A DNA stretch of 32,000 bases, from positions 3,450,001 through 3,482,000 of the forward strand of contig NC_014833.1 of NCBI RefSeq assembly GCF_000179635.2. Direction: 5' to 3'. Shown here one piece after another: positions 631-17,744 of the stretch. Source of the DNA: Ruminococcus albus 7 = DSM 20455. GTDB lineage: Bacteria > Bacillota > Clostridia > Oscillospirales > Ruminococcaceae. A program made the position numbers and the translations under genes. Within the stretch, counting starts at the first letter, position 1. Each line of letters starts with the position of its first letter. The notes under the pieces are model-generated. The model made no database searches and was not told the DNA's origin. It saw only the letters and a list, made by a program, of their open reading frames with translations.

Positions 631-812
631 ATAAAAAGCCTCCCATTCCGAAGAATGAGAGGTGAAATTTTACATGAAATTCCTCATCTTCCGGAAATAA
701 CCGCAGGATTTGGCACCTTGACAAGATACGAACGGTAACTACCGCACGCACTATAACAGGTTGCCGGGCTTCACAGGACCTGATTCCTCCACCACTCTTG
801 ATAAGGCTATTT
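631..812 (-). promoter_or_regulatory. SAM-I (S-box) riboswitch with intrinsic terminator expression platform, in the metK leader
   Basis: The minus-strand reading is CUUAUCAAGAGUGGUGGAGGAAUCAGGUCCUGUGAAGCCCGGCAACC...AAGGUGCCAAAUCCUGCGG...GAAGAUGAGGA. This matches the conserved S-box core and the P1 pairing CUUAUC/GAUGAG. It is followed by the terminator CCUCUCAUUCUUCGGAAUGGGAGG plus UUUUUAUU (complement 631..664). The terminator 5' arm can alternatively pair with the P1 3' strand (antiterminator logic). Confidence 0.9.
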
Positions 813-1054: not shown

Positions 1055-1125
1055 GCGGGTGTAGTTCAATGGTAGAACTCCAGCCTTCCAAGCTGGCCAC
1101 GTGGGTTCGATTCCCATCACCCGCT
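1055..1125 (+). tRNA. tRNA-Gly, anticodon UCC
   Basis: Acceptor GCGGGTG/CACCCGC. Anticodon arm CCAGC-CTTCCAA-GCTGG gives anticodon TCC. T-loop GGTTCGATTCC. No encoded 3' CCA. Confidence 0.93.
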
Positions 1126-1147
1126 TTTACTGTTGAATACAGTATAT

Positions 1148-1221
<74 letters not shown>

Positions 1222-1225
1222 TTAC

Positions 1226-1300
1226 GGTGGGTATAGCGTAGTTGGTTAACGCGTCAGATTGTGGTCCTGAAGATCGAGAGTTCGAATCTCTCTACCCACC
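1226..1300 (+). tRNA. tRNA-His, anticodon GUG, with the extra 5' G(-1)
   Basis: G(-1) plus GTGGGTA/TACCCAC acceptor, with discriminator C pairing to G-1 (a His hallmark). Anticodon loop TTGTGGT gives anticodon GTG. T-loop AGTTCGAATCT. No encoded CCA. Confidence 0.92.
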
Positions 1301-9644: not shown

Positions 9645-10967
9645 ATGAGTGATAAAGTAAAAGTAATAGGTGCAGGGCTTGCAGGATGCGAAGCTGCATG
9701 GCAGCTGGCGAGAGCGGGCATAGATGTTGAGCTTTTTGAGATGAAGCCCAAAAAGTTCACACCTGCGCATAAATACAAGGGCTTCGCGGAACTGGTATGC
9801 TCCAATTCGCTGAAAGCCGACAGAGTTGAATCGGCGGCAGGTATGCTTAAAGAGGAGATGCGCAGACTCGGTTCAGTGACGATGGAATGTGCCGAGGAAG
9901 CAAGAGTTTCCGCAGGCGGTGCACTGGCGGTGGACAGAGAGAAGTTCTCAGACGCTGTTACCGAGCGCATACGGAACAATGAGCATATCACTGTCATCGA
10001 GGAGGAAGTGACGGAGATACCCGACGGGAATGTGATAATCGCTACGGGTCCCCTGACCTCTGACGGTCTGGCTGAGAGCATTGGAAAACTCTGCGGAGAG
10101 TATCTGTACTTTCACGATGCGGCTGCACCTATCGTGACATTTGACAGCATAGATATGGAAAAGGCATTCTTTGCTTCACGCTACGGCAGGGGCGATGCGG
10201 ATTACATAAACTGTCCCATGGACAGGGAGGAGTACGAGCGTTTCTACAACGAACTCATCAACGCCGAGAGCGCACCGCTGAAAGAGCATGACAAAGAGCA
10301 TTTCGCAAAGGACGGCTTCAAGGTATACGAGGGCTGTATGCCTGTTGAAGTGCTGGCAAAGCGCGGCGAGGATACACTTCGCTTCGGACCGCTGAAACCT
10401 GTGGGACTGAGAGACCCGAGGACAGATAAGCGACCCTGGGCGGTGGTACAGCTGAGGGCTGAGAACACTGCTGGGAGTATGTACAATCTGGTAGGCTTCC
10501 AGACAAATCTTAAATTCGGTGAGCAGAAGAGAGTATTCTCGCTTATACCCGGTCTTGAAAATGCAGAGTTCATGCGCTACGGTGTCATGCACAGGAACAC
10601 TTTCATAAATTCCCCTAAACTGCTGAACGAGCAGTTCAATATGAGGGAGAGACCCTCCCTTTACTTCGCAGGGCAGATGACAGGTGTAGAGGGCTATATC
10701 GAGAGTGCGGCAAGCGGAATATTCGCAGGGCTTAATATGGCAAGGCAGATACAGGGACTTTCCCCCGTGAGCCTGCCCGAGACAACCATGCTTGGGGCAC
10801 TCAGCAAGTATATAAGCTCCCCCGATACCGAAAACTTCCAGCCTATGGGCTGTAATATGGGCATACTACCCGAATGGGGAGAGAGAATAAAGGACAAGAA
10901 GCTTAAATACAAACTGCTGGCGGAGAGAGGTCTTGCAGACCTTGACAGATGCATAGCGGAGTTGTGA
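9645..10967 (+). CDS. trmFO: methylenetetrahydrofolate--tRNA-(uracil54-C5)-methyltransferase TrmFO (Gid)
   Basis: FAD motif VIGAGLAGCEAAWQLA, plus ...LVCSNSLK..., GQMTGVEGYIESAASG. The dprA-topA-trmFO order is as in B. subtilis. Confidence 0.93.
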   Translation: MSDKVKVIGAGLAGCEAAWQLARAGIDVELFEMKPKKFTPAHKYKGFAELVCSNSLKADRVESAAGMLKEEMRRLGSVTMECAEEARVSAGGALAVDREKFSDAVTERIRNNEHITVIEEEVTEIPDGNVIIATGPLTSDGLAESIGKLCGEYLYFHDAAAPIVTFDSIDMEKAFFASRYGRGDADYINCPMDREEYERFYNELINAESAPLKEHDKEHFAKDGFKVYEGCMPVEVLAKRGEDTLRFGPLKPVGLRDPRTDKRPWAVVQLRAENTAGSMYNLVGFQTNLKFGEQKRVFSLIPGLENAEFMRYGVMHRNTFINSPKLLNEQFNMRERPSLYFAGQMTGVEGYIESAASGIFAGLNMARQIQGLSPVSLPETTMLGALSKYISSPDTENFQPMGCNMGILPEWGERIKDKKLKYKLLAERGLADLDRCIAEL

Positions 10968-10971
10968 TGAT

Positions 10972-11565
10972 ATGGGTGGAGCTATTCTTTTTTTGGCTGC
11001 GGCTGCAGCCTTCCTGCTGATAAATCTGTCGAGTATATATATTATAGGGAAACTTATAAAAGGTCCCAAAAAGCTTATCAATGATGTTGCACAGGGCGAA
11101 GATAGCAAAACAGCAAAAACTGCCGGTTTGCTTTTTGGACTTCCGTTTTTAACAGCAGGAATGTATATGATGATACTGGCGCTGTTCAAAGTGGGTCACG
11201 GCGAAAAGCTTTACACCGAAATTCCCGAAGGCGGCGGAACGATAACATTACTGTTCATGGGGTGTGTATTTATATTTGCCCCGATATTAAAATTCACCTA
11301 TAACAAAGAGCATGAACCGAAGTATTTCGTGAAACAGGGGCTGTTCTGCTGGCTGACAGGTGTTATAATAACCTCTGCGATGGTGCTGTTCAATTACGGC
11401 ATGATGAAGGAACATGATAAATTCACAGGCTTTGATGAATACTCATGGCATGAGATGCTTACAAAGTGCATACCATGTTCGCTGATAGGTTCGCTTATTT
11501 TACTGACAGTGCTGATGGCACTGCACATCTTTATACAATATAAGAGATTTTACAGCAAGTACTGA
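10972..11565 (+). CDS. hypothetical polytopic membrane protein (about 5 predicted TM segments)
   Basis: 197 aa. Hydrophobic stretches at roughly residues 3-27, 51-73, 88-108, 122-143 and 165-188. I recognise no family motif. Confidence 0.6.
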   Translation: MGGAILFLAAAAAFLLINLSSIYIIGKLIKGPKKLINDVAQGEDSKTAKTAGLLFGLPFLTAGMYMMILALFKVGHGEKLYTEIPEGGGTITLLFMGCVFIFAPILKFTYNKEHEPKYFVKQGLFCWLTGVIITSAMVLFNYGMMKEHDKFTGFDEYSWHEMLTKCIPCSLIGSLILLTVLMALHIFIQYKRFYSKY

Positions 11566-11623
11566 CGGTATATGCTGTGATATGATCATTGAGAAAAAAC
11601 AGATCCCGATATGGAGAGAGAGC

Positions 11624-12295
11624 ATGAAAATAAAAATACCGGCAGCTGTGCTGGCACTTATGATGCTTGCAGGCTGTGGAAATACGGCAGGAGAAACTGA
11701 TGCCGCAAATATGGAAAAACCCGGTCTGACAATTGTGACCCCGGAAGAACAGGCAGAGCGCTGCGACAGCTATGATGACAGCATGACAGCTGCATTCCTG
11801 TCAAAGATAGACGCTCATGATTTTGCCATAAAACTCAGTTCCTCACAGAATGGCGGAGAAGAGGTCATAGAAGAGGTAGAGGTAAGCGGAAACATACTGC
11901 ATGATATCTACAAGACCCACGAGGGTATGGTCACGGCAGAGCTTTACATTGTGGACGGCGGAATATGGTGCGTTACCAATGAGGGCAGTGATAATGTGAC
12001 CTATCAGGGCTTTGACAACAGCTATGATGACCATGTGAGGGAGTGTGTATTCCACTGTCCCGGCATAGGCAGCAAGGATAAGTATGCAGGTATGACCGAT
12101 GATCACACCGACAAGATACTGGGGCAGACCAATGATACGGAGTACCTTTTCACCTACGGTGATGACGGCATACTCAAAAACTGCGATGGCAGCGGTACGC
12201 ATATAGAGGTACTTGAATTCACAGACGGCATCGGCAGTTTACAGATACCCGAGAATGTTCGCGCGGCGATAGAGAACAAGGACTTGAACGGATAG
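11624..12295 (+). CDS. putative lipoprotein, paralog 1 of 3
   Basis: Start moved to the ATG at 11624 (GGAGAGAG upstream). Signal peptide plus lipobox: MKIKIPAAVLALMMLAGC. Shares motifs with the next two genes (SYDDSMTAAFLSKI, YIVDG, LQIPEN). Confidence 0.75.
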   Translation: MKIKIPAAVLALMMLAGCGNTAGETDAANMEKPGLTIVTPEEQAERCDSYDDSMTAAFLSKIDAHDFAIKLSSSQNGGEEVIEEVEVSGNILHDIYKTHEGMVTAELYIVDGGIWCVTNEGSDNVTYQGFDNSYDDHVRECVFHCPGIGSKDKYAGMTDDHTDKILGQTNDTEYLFTYGDDGILKNCDGSGTHIEVLEFTDGIGSLQIPENVRAAIENKDLNG

Positions 12296-13711: not shown

Positions 13712-14716
13712 ATGAACATAGTAATGGACGCATTCGGCGGTGACAACGCACCGCTGGAAGTCATCAAGGGCGCTGTTGACGCTCAGAGAGACTTCGGCGT
13801 GGATATAACACTGGTGGGCGATGAGAAGAAGATAAAGGACTGCGCTGCCAAAAACAGTATAGATATTTCGGCACTGAAGATACGCCATGCCGATACCGTT
13901 ATAGAGATATGCGAAGAGCCTACCGAGGTCATCAAGGGCAAAAAGGATTGCTCAATGGCTGTGGGTATGCAGATGCTGGCTGACGGCGAAGGCGATGCTT
14001 TCGTATCAGCAGGCTCGACAGGTGCGCTGGTGGTCGGTGCTACATTCATCGTCAAGAGGCTAAAGGGCATCAAGCGCCCCGCACTGGCAACTATACTGCC
14101 TACCGCAGGCAAGCCTACAATGCTCCTGGACAGCGGCGCAAATGCAGACTGCCGCCCCGAGATGCTGGTACAGTTCGGCATAATGGGCACAGCTTATATG
14201 AACAAGATACTGGGCGTTGATAAGCCGAGGGTAGCACTGGCAAATATAGGCGCTGAGGAATCAAAGGGCAGAGAGCTGGAGCTGGAGACTTATAAGCAGC
14301 TGAAAACAGCTCCCGTGAACTTCGTGGGCAATATCGAAGCTAGACAGCTCCCTCTGGGCGACTGCGATGTATGTGTGGCTGACGGTTTCTGCGGAAACCT
14401 CATGCTGAAACTCTACGAGGGCATGGGCAAGTTCTTCTCAGGCGAGCTGAAAAATATATTCAAGAGCAGTGCAAAGAGCAAGCTGGCTGCTGTTATGGTA
14501 ATGAAAGATATCAACAATTTCAAGAAGAAAATCGATTACTCCGAGTACGGCGGAGCTCCCCTGCTGGGTACAGCAAAGCCCGTTATAAAAGCTCACGGCA
14601 GTTCGGACGCAAAGGCATTCTACAACGCTGTAAGGCAGGCGAAACAGTTCACCGAGACAGGCGTTATCGATATGATAACCGATGCTCTCGCACAGATGAA
14701 GAAGGTGCAGGGATAA
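13712..14716 (+). CDS. plsX: phosphate acyltransferase PlsX
   Basis: Start at the ATG at 13712 (GGAGG at 13699..13703). MDAFGGDNAP..., FVSAGSTGA..., KAHGSSDAKA are PlsX signatures. Confidence 0.93.
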   Translation: MNIVMDAFGGDNAPLEVIKGAVDAQRDFGVDITLVGDEKKIKDCAAKNSIDISALKIRHADTVIEICEEPTEVIKGKKDCSMAVGMQMLADGEGDAFVSAGSTGALVVGATFIVKRLKGIKRPALATILPTAGKPTMLLDSGANADCRPEMLVQFGIMGTAYMNKILGVDKPRVALANIGAEESKGRELELETYKQLKTAPVNFVGNIEARQLPLGDCDVCVADGFCGNLMLKLYEGMGKFFSGELKNIFKSSAKSKLAAVMVMKDINNFKKKIDYSEYGGAPLLGTAKPVIKAHGSSDAKAFYNAVRQAKQFTETGVIDMITDALAQMKKVQG

Positions 14717-15414
14717 TGGACGAGCAGAAGTGTCTGGAAGCCTTTCAGAAGAAGATAGGCTACCATTTCAAAAACGAAAAACTGCTGTATGAAGCGCTGT
14801 CACATTCAAGCTTTGCCAACGAGAACAAAAAACAGCGCCACAGCAACGAGCGTCTTGAATTTCTGGGAGATTCGGTGCTTTCGATAGTAGTATCAGACCA
14901 CATCTTCGAGCATTTCAAGCATCTGCCCGAGGGTGAGCTGACAAAACTGAGAGCATCACTGGTATGTGAGAAAGCACTGTTTGAGTTTTCACACAAGATA
15001 GAGCTTGGCAAGTACATATTCCTCGGCAAGGGCGAGGAACTCACAGGCGGCAGAGAGCGTGCATCCATAGTATCCGATGCTATGGAAGCTGTTATCGCGG
15101 CGATATACCTCGACGGCGGACTTGAAGCGGCAAGAAAGCATATAATGAACTTTCTGCCAAAGGATCTGAATCCTGCGCACACAGATACGTTCCACGACTA
15201 CAAGACAGTATTGCAGGAGATAATCCAGCGCAATCCCGAGGAAAAAGTAGAGTACTTTTTAAAGGGCGAGGACGGTCCCGACCATGACAAGAGATTCACG
15301 GTACAGGTGAAGCTGAACAACAACGTAATAGGCGAGGGCATAGGCAGGTCGAAGAAGAATGCCGAGCAGAATGCGGCTAAAGAAGCGTTGGCACTCATGG
15401 GAGTCAAGGTCTAA
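14716..15414 (+). CDS. rnc: ribonuclease III
   Basis: The start overlaps the plsX stop (TAATG). RNase III signature NERLEFLGDSVL. C-terminal dsRBD ...GRSKKNAEQNAAKEAL. Confidence 0.95.
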   Translation: MDEQKCLEAFQKKIGYHFKNEKLLYEALSHSSFANENKKQRHSNERLEFLGDSVLSIVVSDHIFEHFKHLPEGELTKLRASLVCEKALFEFSHKIELGKYIFLGKGEELTGGRERASIVSDAMEAVIAAIYLDGGLEAARKHIMNFLPKDLNPAHTDTFHDYKTVLQEIIQRNPEEKVEYFLKGEDGPDHDKRFTVQVKLNNNVIGEGIGRSKKNAEQNAAKEALALMGVKV

Positions 15415-15804
15415 TCCAATTCATAATTCACAATTCATAATTCATAATTATTGGCAGGGCAACAACGTAGCTGTACTTTGGATAGAATGCCAAGGAGGAG
15501 AGCTTTGGGTCAAGCCTTTCGCGAAAGGCTTGCGGAGTTTGAGGCAGAGCCTCAAGCACCAAGGCAAGGAACCAAAATGCAAAGCGAACTATAATAGAAC
15601 AGCAAACTCCCGACCAAATGGCGCGGGCAATACCAAACGATACGAGCGTGTACGAAAGTATACGACCGCACAAACTATCCGCGTGAATTATTGCCCGCGC
15701 CCGTCATCGGACAGCGAAGCGAATACGATGACTCGACCCGTAAGGGGCGACCCGATAATGCAGTACGTAAGAATCAGGAATACCAACAGAAAAGAGGCGC
15801 ACAA
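15415..15804 (+). ncRNA. unassigned structured intergenic region (candidate cis-element or ncRNA); strand inferred from GNRA loops
   Basis: 390 nt with no credible CDS.
- Heptamer repeat at 15418..15452.
- Perfect 22-nt palindrome CAAGCCTTTCGCGAAAGGCTTG at 15511..15532.
- Hairpin TTGAGGC-AGA-GCCTCAA at 15538..15556.
- 13-bp perfect inverted repeat GGCGCGGGCAATA (15620..15632) / TATTGCCCGCGCC (15689..15701), enclosing a GAAA-capped 7-bp hairpin (15647..15664).
- GTCATCG/CGATGAC stem (15703..15732).
- GTAA-capped hairpin (15733..15750). Confidence 0.35.
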
Positions 15805-16830
15805 ATGCATAGCAACATATCAATATTCGTCCCCCATGTGGGCTGTCCGCATAAGTGCGCATTCTGTGACCAGCGGACTATCACGGGCAAGCAGAAACTC
15901 CCCCATAAAGAGGACGTTGAACGTGCCTGTCTGCAGGCACTTGGTCAGGTAGACGATATCAGTGATACCGAGATAGCATTCTTCGGGGGAAGCTTTACCG
16001 CTATACCCAGAGAGTATATGCTGGAACTGCTGAGCGCGGCATATAAGTTCGTGGGCGAAGGAAAGTTCAAAGGCATAAGGCTTTCGACGCGCCCCGACTA
16101 TATCAACAGAGAAGTGCTGGATATCCTGAAAAAATACGGCGTTACTTCTATCGAACTGGGCGCACAGTCAATGTCCGATGAAGTGCTTGAAGCCAACGAA
16201 AGAGGTCATACCGCCGAGGACGTAAGACAGGCAAGCAGGCTTATCCGTGAGTACGGATTTGAACTTGGTCTGCAAATGATGGTGGGGCTTTACAAAAGCG
16301 GTCACCGGCAGGAGGACGAGACCTTTAACGAGATAATGGCTATCCACCCCGATACCGTCAGGATATATCCCGTGGTTATACTTAAACACACCCGCCTAGC
16401 TGAACTTCTGGCGAGCGGTGAGTATAAGCCTATGTCTTTCGATGAAGTTCTGTCACTCTCAACAAGGGCACTTGGGGCTTTCACGGAAGCAGGTATAAAA
16501 GTCATAAAGTGCGGTCTTCACGCAAGCGAGTTCGTTGAAAATGATATGGTGGGAGGTTTCTACCATCCTGCATTCAGGGAACTTTGCGAAAACAGGATAT
16601 ATCTCATGAAAATGGAGAGCGCTCTGCATGATGCAAACAGTCAAGGCACTACTCCAAATGATATGCGTGTGACTTTCGCCGTGGGCAAGGGCTGCATAAG
16701 TAAGGCGGTCGGTCAGAAAAAGGCGAATATACAGGGCTTTGAAAAGCTCGGTATAAAGGTGAAGATAACCGAGGATAAGGATATCCCGCTTTATGAAGTC
16801 AAGCTTATTGGCGGACTCGAAAATGTTTAA
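15805..16830 (+). CDS. ELP3-like radical SAM enzyme (no recognisable acetyltransferase domain)
   Basis: Start moved to the ATG at 15805 (AAAGAGG RBS). SIFVPHVGCPHKCAFCDQ is the CxxxCxxC radical SAM cluster motif in the ELP3-like context. The remainder looks like a TIM-barrel. Lies between rnc and smc. Confidence 0.8.
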   Translation: MHSNISIFVPHVGCPHKCAFCDQRTITGKQKLPHKEDVERACLQALGQVDDISDTEIAFFGGSFTAIPREYMLELLSAAYKFVGEGKFKGIRLSTRPDYINREVLDILKKYGVTSIELGAQSMSDEVLEANERGHTAEDVRQASRLIREYGFELGLQMMVGLYKSGHRQEDETFNEIMAIHPDTVRIYPVVILKHTRLAELLASGEYKPMSFDEVLSLSTRALGAFTEAGIKVIKCGLHASEFVENDMVGGFYHPAFRELCENRIYLMKMESALHDANSQGTTPNDMRVTFAVGKGCISKAVGQKKANIQGFEKLGIKVKITEDKDIPLYEVKLIGGLENV

Positions 16831-17245
16831 CGAACTTGTAAAGTCGATACTGTTTGAAACTATCCTTGTGATGTTGTTTGTGCGGAACATCGTCATGCTG
16901 AAAAAAGCGTTGGCGCTTCGGCGTGACATAAAGGCAGATAATACTGAAAAGGTCAAAGCAAGGATAACATTTACAAGACCCACAGGCAACAGAAGCTATA
17001 TGGCGCGGGCAGTGTATACCGTCGGCGGCAGTGAGGTAAAAGGAAGTTCGGTCTGCGCTGTAGGGTACAGACTCAGGCGCGGTGATGAAAATAATGTCAT
17101 CGTCGGAAAAACCGACAGCAGTGTGTTTGCACTGGATGAACAGCATACAAAAGATGCTGTGCTGACATGGACAGTTCTTGGTATCCTTAATGTGCTTGGC
17201 ATGATGTTCTTTGCTGTGGATATAGTATTTGAGATAATAAAGTAA
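16823..17245 (+). CDS. small membrane protein, DUF3592-like architecture (TM, beta-rich domain, TM)
   Basis: The ATG at 16823 overlaps the radical SAM stop; the ATG at 16793 is an alternative start. N- and C-terminal hydrophobic helices flank ARITFTRPTGNRSYMARAVYTVGGSEVKGSS...GDENNVIVGK. This pattern resembles DUF3592 from memory only. Confidence 0.55.
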   Translation: MFNELVKSILFETILVMLFVRNIVMLKKALALRRDIKADNTEKVKARITFTRPTGNRSYMARAVYTVGGSEVKGSSVCAVGYRLRRGDENNVIVGKTDSSVFALDEQHTKDAVLTWTVLGILNVLGMMFFAVDIVFEIIK

Positions 17246-17703: not shown

Positions 17704-17744
17704 ATCAACCAGGTAAAGAAAATTAGGAAAGGCGGTGAAAAATA

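Follow-up and report, generated by a model that had tools for sequence, protein, structure and literature searches.

In Escherichia coli, the structured RNA of the rnc operon lies in the 5' leader, where a long double helix is cleaved by RNase III, and this site is operon-specific. The REP/BIME elements affect mRNA stability and attenuation. These effects are also described in PMC3049150, according to which 36 pneumococcal genes end in a stop codon that a BOX repeat encodes at their extreme 3' end, BOX repeats are co-transcribed and have been proposed to alter mRNA stability, Correia elements are cleaved by RNase III and the effects of ERIC are orientation-dependent. Here we analyze the 390-nt spacer (positions 15415-15804) between rnc and an ELP3-like radical-SAM gene in a stretch of 32,000 nucleotides of Ruminococcus albus 7 = DSM 20455 (contig NC_014833.1, positions 3,450,001 to 3,482,000, forward strand), hereafter called the window. 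With a probability that we put at roughly 80%, this spacer is one copy of a dispersed, modular and hairpin-rich R. albus repeat of about 350 nt, BOX/BIME-like in kind and present as a co-transcribed intercistronic RNA.

No second copy was found within the 32-kb window, and a family profile built from 23 full copies matched the window once, at 15426-15768 (315 bits). A metagenome scan for the exact 22-nt palindrome of the spacer returned 33 loci, of which only L120 carries the rnc and radical-SAM genes. In the other 32 loci the homology spans the whole element (window positions about 15415-15775), on either genomic strand, and the order of parts in the copies is (AATTCAT)n, hairpins A to C, a domain closed by a 13-bp helix, hairpins 4 and 5 and a terminal (C/A)(C/T)GCAGTACGT. 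With the window copy as query, nhmmer gave 64 matches in the collected loci; the family profile gave 91 matches in L095-L127 (312 kb) and none in L013-L090 (441 kb from 78 other species). After merging, 44 distinct copies of at least 200 nt were counted, among which only four locus pairs are the same site in different samples. The element stands at no fewer than 40 distinct sites in R. albus DNA, most of the extra copies coming from one rumen metagenome and the copy number per genome being inferred as a lower bound.

Isolate DNA also carries more than one copy. The window is identical to isolate contig JHYT01000004.1 (GCA_000621285.1, AD2013), and a second full copy lies on this contig about 5.7 kb past the window end, after a HisA-like isomerase gene; this copy reaches 334 bits, and its identity to the one at rnc is 77%. 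The HisA-like gene was traced to R. albus isolates, and a 3.8-Mb isolate assembly also has a copy there, while a KH2T6-like lineage has only 47 nt at the same junction. One short allele of the hisA-like/thioesterase junction (L132:2275-2321; TGTAGGTCATATCCCGACCGTACATATGCG) resembles a hairpin-5 arm plus the 3' terminal block, and may have been left by a deletion, in which case the site was once occupied. As far as sampled, the family is confined to the R. albus clade. In IMG/VR the 22-mer had no matches and the hairpin-5 motif had six chance matches, none fitting the family profile; matches in plasmid and phage collections were limited to the AT-rich heptad region and to unrelated records, R. 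albus plasmids being unconfirmed in PLSDB. No account of the family turned up in the literature searched for repeats of R. albus, and it appears to be undescribed both there and in Rfam, but of a known kind (BOX/BIME-like). The initial annotation of the spacer had considered a cis-acting element, for example an RNase III substrate for feedback on rnc, an independent non-coding RNA or a miniature repeat element, and had named many copies elsewhere as the sign of a repeat rather than a dedicated RNA. With at least 40 sites in R. albus DNA and a second copy on the same isolate contig, its repeat option is supported and its two dedicated RNA options are not.

The history of the junction points in the same direction. 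Both flanking genes are on the + strand: rnc (14716-15414) encodes an RNase III of 232 aa with Pfam Ribonucleas_3_3 and dsrm domains, and the radical-SAM gene (15805-16830; 341 aa in the window strain) was assigned by Pfam Radical_SAM and Radical_SAM_C domains and by homologues, its start codon being the ATG at 15805 and not at 15806. A scan of species-representative genomes gave 80 loci encoding the radical-SAM protein in other Ruminococcus and Oscillospiraceae species, and in 78 of them the two genes overlap or abut (-11 to +8 nt). At the overlapping junctions of these outgroups rnc ends with ...LMGYEAQ* across ATGAAGCACAGTAA, inside the next gene, whereas the R. albus protein ends with ...LMGVKV*. 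Only two of the 80 have homologous spacers, R. albus KH2T6 (488 nt) and one metagenome-assembled genome (MAG; 534 nt). The spacer is restricted to the R. albus clade and ranges there from 55 to 534 nt. Other contigs of the clade have spacers of 245, 71 and 55 nt in which only pieces of the 5' part are left or the 13-bp helix has lost an arm; in L091 the 3' arm is missing, and one contig has 287 nt of unrelated sequence at the junction. The spacer is a lineage-specific insertion that splits an ancestrally overlapping gene junction, and its being absent, truncated or replaced in relatives disfavours a dedicated, conserved rnc element.

For 43 unique copies no shorter than 200 nt, the position relative to genes was scored. 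Twenty-five begin between -58 and +51 nt from the stop codon of a co-oriented long open reading frame (ORF), most of them within about 30 nt, and the copies of L012 and L105 also follow a co-oriented ORF once their 5' extension modules are counted. Eleven of the 43 occur only as the inverted partner in tail-to-tail doublets, and about five are in other arrangements. All singletons that follow an ORF are in sense orientation (18 sense, 0 antisense), and the stop codon of the upstream ORF is often the heptad's own TAA. At the window locus the rnc TAA (15412-15414) is the junction with the repeat: the element supplies or abuts the rnc stop codon and leaves a locus-specific sequence (15776-15804, +) with the radical-SAM ribosome-binding site (RBS; AAGAGG, 15792-15797), which is strain-invariant here and not common to the copies at other loci. 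The host genes, which from their translations we take to encode RuvB, ClpB, PfkA, GH43, LtaS, an AraC regulator, a Mn catalase, a GNAT protein and others, are by that reading functionally unrelated; the HisA-like assignment was confirmed by source names. The position next to rnc is coincidental. On their 3' side the copies are followed by the RBS of the next cistron or by the gene's own terminator; therefore, the element sits between cistrons or in the 3' untranslated region (UTR).

The family is modular, with optional 5' extension modules, small palindromic inserts at loop tips and doublets. Tail-to-tail doublets with 60-140 nt between copies were observed at L095:2861-3588, L096:6853-7561 and 10859-11665, L104:64-699, L108:1849-2602, L112:4298-4985, L117:1856-2652, L118:4744-5433, L099:7827-8520 and L121:7023-7669. 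The centre is asymmetric and conserved in five doublets (ACTCGCAAAGCTACGTCCCAAAACCAAACCATCGACCAGCCC...), and this block also stands 3' of two more copies (L097 and L114). If transcribed through, the doublets would form double-stranded RNA (dsRNA) of about 300 bp. At four sites (L104:~739, L114:~636, L125:~10740 and L127:~6893) the element or its heptads start without a long upstream ORF and have a common upstream module, in the order ATTATA[AG]CA, 11-13 nt, A[AT]TGTAAAG[AC]G, 10-14 nt and heptads. This module may be a promoter or a Shine-Dalgarno-like leader, or may contain a mini-ORF that uses the heptad TAA as its stop, and could mark stand-alone transcription units. Small near-perfect palindromes were seen at the loop tips of L003, L120 and L125 (CAGTCAACTTTGTTGACTG), of L110, L119 and L131 (CCATCAGCAAAGCTGATGG) and of L002, L098, L116, L125 and L127 (ACAGCCGACGCAGTCGCTGT). 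Another occurs in many 5' heptad leaders (ACACTAAAAGCGAAGCGTTAGTGT), and several of the small palindromes contain the mini-hairpin motif GCGAAGC. The palindromic inserts suggest either a nested mini-repeat or a mutational process (template switching) that is still generating palindromes.

The window copy, as delimited by nhmmer and profile matches, spans 15415-15775 on the + strand. It opens with a heptad leader (15415-15450) of about 4.5 units of (TAATTCA/AATTCAT)n, which places TAA stops in all three frames. The number of heptads ranges, as in a microsatellite, from 1 to about 4.5 among strains (L001-L012 and L141) and copies, and in the collected loci the motif is rarely seen other than at an element's 5' end. 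Four or more heptads create a promoter-like TTCATA-17-CATAAT, and their number could make expression of the downstream genes strain-variable. Hairpin A (15451-15493) has an outer stem UUGGCA/UGCCAA around GGGCAAC..GUAGCUGUACU..GGAUAGAA, with 92% of cells paired in 22 copies. A helix GCUUUGG/CCAAGGC (15502-15565), found in the minimum free energy and centroid folds and 90% paired, encloses hairpins B and C and keeps its U.G wobble in 18 of the 22 copies. Hairpin B (15511-15532) is the perfect 22-nt palindrome CAAGCCUUU-CGCG-AAAGGCUUG used in the metagenome scan and is 98.5% paired. Hairpin C (15537-15557) has a conserved loop region GGCAGAGCC and a stem whose letters vary between copies with the pairing kept; in the window, 15538-15556 reads TTTGAGGC-AGA-GCCTCAAG, with seven Watson-Crick pairs and one U.G.

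An A/C-rich, U-poor linker (15566-15619), predicted to be unpaired from folding and skew and variable between copies, separates these hairpins from the domain (15620-15701) closed by the 13-bp helix GGCGCGGGCAAUA/UAUUGCCCGCGCC. The two arms of this helix (15620-15632 and 15689-15701) form a perfect inverted repeat, with 91.8% of cells paired in 23 copies, and the domain contains a GAAA-capped hairpin, CGUGUAC-GAAA-GUAUACG, with one G.U (15647-15664). Hairpin 4 (15703-15732) has a 7-bp stem GUCAUCG...CGAUGAC (15703-15709 with 15726-15732) and a GCGAAGC-type loop. Hairpin 5 (15733-15750) is the GUAA-capped UCGaCCC-GUAA-GGGgCGA; it is 88% paired, and in some copies its loop is swapped for longer inserts. 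Family homology ends with the 3' terminal block (C/A)(C/T)GCAGUACGU (15758-15775), right after which the flanks of different copies diverge. The words CGACC(C)G occur at about 15610, 15662, 15734 and 15748. The window copy also has an imperfect 8-bp complementarity between ACGTAGCTG (15466-15474) and CAGTACGT (15761-15768), which is inconsistent in other copies.

Pairing is kept across copies to a degree that slid partners do not reach: 93.2% of cells are paired in the stems of the 3' half, against 37-42% with slid partners, and 90.7% in those of the 5' half, against 30-54%. In hairpin 4 every cell (100%) is paired and both partners have changed in four of the seven pairs (AU/UA/CG and others), in hairpin B compensatory changes turn C-G into U-A and G-C into A-U, and the 13-bp helix shows a matched one-base deletion in both arms (GCGCGG-CAAU/AUUG-CCGCGC). 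Covariation among paralogues partly reflects subfamily inheritance. These patterns indicate that the stems are under constraint, acting on RNA or on single-stranded DNA. Compared with dinucleotide shuffles, the spacer has a more stable fold on either strand (z = -3.45 for + and -3.22 for -). GNRA loops and U-poor linkers are found only in the sense (+) reading. G.U exceeds A.C in the stems by 60:24, mostly owing to a few conserved wobbles of the 5' half, the 3' half being symmetric (10:12), and segment folding favours the sense strand for hairpins A, C and 5 and the antisense strand for the long domain.

The description of the spacer given in the initial annotation agrees with these results. 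The palindrome, hairpins, inverted repeat, stems and CGACC(C)G words that it listed are all present, the stems are real in that they are paired across copies, its GNRA loops are indeed restricted to the + strand and the T-poor composition appears as an AT skew of 0.35-0.43 over 15500-15800. It had seen no credible coding sequence, and we found many indels that are not multiples of three in the alignments of strain alleles and paralogous copies, so that coding capacity is not credible. It had also recognized no known RNA core. When the 32-kb window was scanned with Rfam 15, the spacer had no match at the gathering score, nor was there anything in 15300-15900 at E <= 10, and nine other element-bearing loci gave nothing for the element; a curated Rfam 15 family (riboswitch, leader, small RNA (sRNA), ribozyme, group II intron domain or omega/HEARO RNA) was rejected on this account. 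Unrelated to the repeat, Rfam located a SAM-I riboswitch (71.8 bits; window 681-807, -) and three tandem tRNA genes (window 1055-1300, +). A terminator scan found none within the spacer or at the end of the element, and a promoter scan of the spacer found one weak promoter-like site, inside the heptads, and none conserved between copies.

An exact-protein look-up with RNase III gave ten loci from rumen metagenomes and MAGs, plus the GCA_000621285.1 contig. Among the metagenome and MAG strains, spacer alleles of the rnc locus are 57-72% identical inside flanks of about 99% identity, because the alleles are mosaics of paralogue segments. Whole hairpins are swapped for different, still self-complementary sequences, and tracts of 50-99 nt with 94-99% identity connect single rnc-locus alleles to copies at other loci. 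A 30-nt insert, CAGTCAAC-TTT-GTTGACTG, of the rnc-locus alleles L003 and L120 is also in the paralogous L125, the hairpin-5 loop insert of L002 recurs in L098, L109 and L096, and the long-helix allele of SY3 and L006 matches KH2T6. In the isolates AD2013 and SY3 the 3' half of the spacer is 61-75% identical, as against 93-100% in the flanks; metagenome misassembly as the source of the hypervariability was ruled out, since these isolate assemblies repeat the pattern. We infer that ectopic gene conversion among family members is the simplest account of the mosaics.

A second hypervariable island (window 16754-17239) was observed at the 3' end of the radical-SAM gene, where AD2013 and SY3 are 16-44% identical, with more than 90% on either side. 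The window strain has there the 341-aa radical-SAM protein and an overlapping 140-aa ORF (ATG at 16823); in SY3 and several other strains the sequence here is unrelated and belongs to a fused protein of 415 aa. The 140-aa ORF had no Pfam match, and the island has no similarity to the spacer; a template/variable repeat pair like that of diversity-generating retroelements was discarded for the latter reason. In one metagenome strain (L010:3700-5156) the stretch from the element to a 147-aa ORF has no called radical-SAM gene, which may reflect a frameshift or a pseudogene.

We also looked for traces of mobility. The 3' flanks of about 35 copies showed no motif common with the 5' flanks, comparison with the shorter hisA-like allele showed no duplication, and a TAA target-site duplication was rejected as inconsistent across copies. 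The heptads could conceivably be a target motif. Only one paralogous gene family, which may be ABC-type, recurs near copies (6 loci). In one strain a Cas12f1/TnpB-like gene (L008:5970-6699; corresponding window position about 17704-17744) is inserted between smc and the 147-aa ORF; a link to this insertion was rejected, because it has no sequence in common with the repeat family. As to known classes, homologous copies at unrelated sites, two of them on one isolate contig, are what defines an interspersed repeat, and modularity and extensive secondary structure are those of BOX-like elements. The element resembles miniature inverted-repeat transposable elements in being non-coding and about 350 nt long, but shows no target-site duplication. 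Membership of REP/BIME/REPIN was rejected for a unit of about 350 nt with at least six hairpins, even though inverted doublets do exist. An integron attC site or cassette was likewise rejected: the position 3' of ORFs is alike, but the hosts are scattered housekeeping genes, often convergent, and there are no arrays, no genome-wide search for an integrase having been made.

If the spacer is, as we believe, a copy of a dispersed repeat, it would be transcribed within the plsX-rnc-radical-SAM-smc message; co-transcription is suggested by the U-poor sense strand and by the lack of a terminator in the element. Within the mRNA, the element would form a chain of stable 7-13-bp stem-loops separated by A/C-rich linkers, and would uncouple translation of the two genes that flank it. 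The helices of a single copy would be too short for canonical RNase III cleavage; inverted doublets elsewhere would form long dsRNA. The element would be largely a selfish passenger that, like BOX, REP/BIME and Correia, incidentally changes mRNA processing or stability. It probably spread at the DNA level by a trans-acting activity or by recombination, with ectopic gene conversion reshuffling the copies.

Several points weigh against this account. Neither terminal inverted repeats nor target-site duplications were recognised, and the roughly 5 kb on either side of the copies showed no recurrent transposase-like gene, although an autonomous partner elsewhere in the genome may have escaped notice. 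Metagenome contigs, which may be chimeric where repeats occur, supply most of the extra copies; two sites and the mosaicism are borne out by isolate assemblies. The evidence for strand-specificity (G.U:A.C ratio and segment folding) is only moderate. Lastly, sense-only orientation and abutment to stop codons are unexpected for a selfish element that inserts at random, and hint at targeting or at a function at the RNA level.

Two other explanations we consider unlikely. The element could be, instead of a selfish repeat, a selected 3'-UTR or intercistronic RNA module installed at stop codons, in which the three-frame-stop heptads and the sense-strand structure act jointly, for example by blocking 3'-5' exonucleases, preventing Rho loading or setting ribosome release. 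The 18 ORF-following singletons, all in sense and starting at the stop codon, the strong covariation of the stems, the U-poor sense strand without terminators, the excess of G.U over A.C in the 5'-half stems and the GNRA loops on the sense strand only would fit such a module. However, the element is dispensable at orthologous sites (47 nt at the hisA-like junction in one lineage, 55-71 nt at the rnc junction in two), its host genes have no common function, eleven copies are antisense doublet partners, the fast mosaic turnover fits weak sequence constraint and the orientation bias can come from selection against a U-rich, terminator-like antisense strand. About equally doubtful is a mobile 3'-UTR module actively targeted to stop codons or translation-termination sites, with its own three-frame stop and a selected role of the sense RNA. 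If such targeting were true, the RNA would serve, for instance, in protection of mRNA 3' ends, in Rho insulation or as a processing site, and the ~300-bp dsRNA of tail-to-tail doublets would be a natural substrate of RNase III.

A dedicated cis element of the rnc operon, either the RNase III feedback substrate suggested by the initial annotation or a leader or riboswitch of radical-SAM and smc, is far less probable, being largely refuted by copy number. The element is in the rnc transcript and upstream of the radical-SAM RBS, and has stable stems and sense-strand GNRA loops. Yet the same element follows many unrelated genes, the junction is free of it in the 78 other species, and in close relatives it is partly or largely deleted, truncated to 55-245 nt or replaced, without one arm of the 13-bp helix in L091. 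Moreover, RNase III sites typically comprise roughly two helical turns, and the longest uninterrupted helix here, of 13 bp, is below that length; for these reasons an autoregulatory or processing site of RNase III was rejected, and Rfam gave no riboswitch or leader match. Just as improbable is a multicopy trans-acting sRNA gene with its own promoter, or a non-autonomous palindrome-associated transposable element (PATE) of IS200/IS605 type carrying a TnpB guide-RNA (omega-RNA) scaffold, for which one could adduce the possibly promoter-proximal module ATTATA[AG]CA...AATGTAAAGAG common to the four copies without an upstream ORF, the promoter-like TTCATA-17-CATAAT of the heptads and the TnpB/Cas12f-like gene near the L008 copy, but which is opposed by the lack of a terminator within or at the end of the element, of a promoter conserved between copies and of an Rfam match, by the fusion of most copies to ORF 3' ends, and by the L008 TnpB insertion sharing no sequence with the repeat while no TnpA or TnpB gene recurs near copies.

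For annotation, the dispersed-repeat reading removes a tempting false lead, that of a new riboswitch or of a feedback RNA for rnc, and other structured, covarying and unassigned spacers of R. albus are best checked first against this family. Its unusual traits are the near-exclusive sense placement at stop codons, the heptad leader with stops in three frames and the fast mosaic turnover that produces a hypervariable island. The repeat could serve as a strain-typing marker, and offers a tractable case for studying site choice by interspersed repeats and their effect on operon expression in an important cellulolytic bacterium of the rumen.

Compared with described systems, the element is like the E. 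coli rnc leader in being structured RNA of an rnc operon, but its helices are short and it occurs in many copies, here on the 3' side of rnc. From the Correia elements of Neisseria and the ERIC/IRU of enterobacteria, which are non-coding, co-transcribed and hairpin-forming and alter transcript processing (PMC3049150), it differs in architecture, as these are single long hairpins made from terminal inverted repeats, with TA target duplications in Correia, whereas the R. albus element is a string of 7-13-bp hairpins. The REP/BIME of E. coli and REPINs are like it in being extragenic palindromes located in 3' UTRs or between cistrons, with mosaic modules and inverted doublets. Their units, however, measure 20-40 nt and alternate in orientation, unlike the ~350-nt composite of R. 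albus, and the proposed mobiliser of REP is the RAYT transposase, none of which was identified near the R. albus copies. The boxA-boxB-boxC repeat of Streptococcus pneumoniae is also modular, structured and hundreds of nt long, with many intergenic copies and a variable number of modules. By sequence the R. albus repeat belongs neither to BOX, REP or Correia nor to an Rfam family. No homology to BOX was sought or seen, BOX has terminal inverted repeats resembling ISSpn2, a kind of partner not found for the R. albus element, and the latter has in addition the three-frame-stop heptad leader, the sense singletons and the long tail-to-tail doublets. The pneumococcal BOX element is the closest analogue of the R. 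albus repeat.

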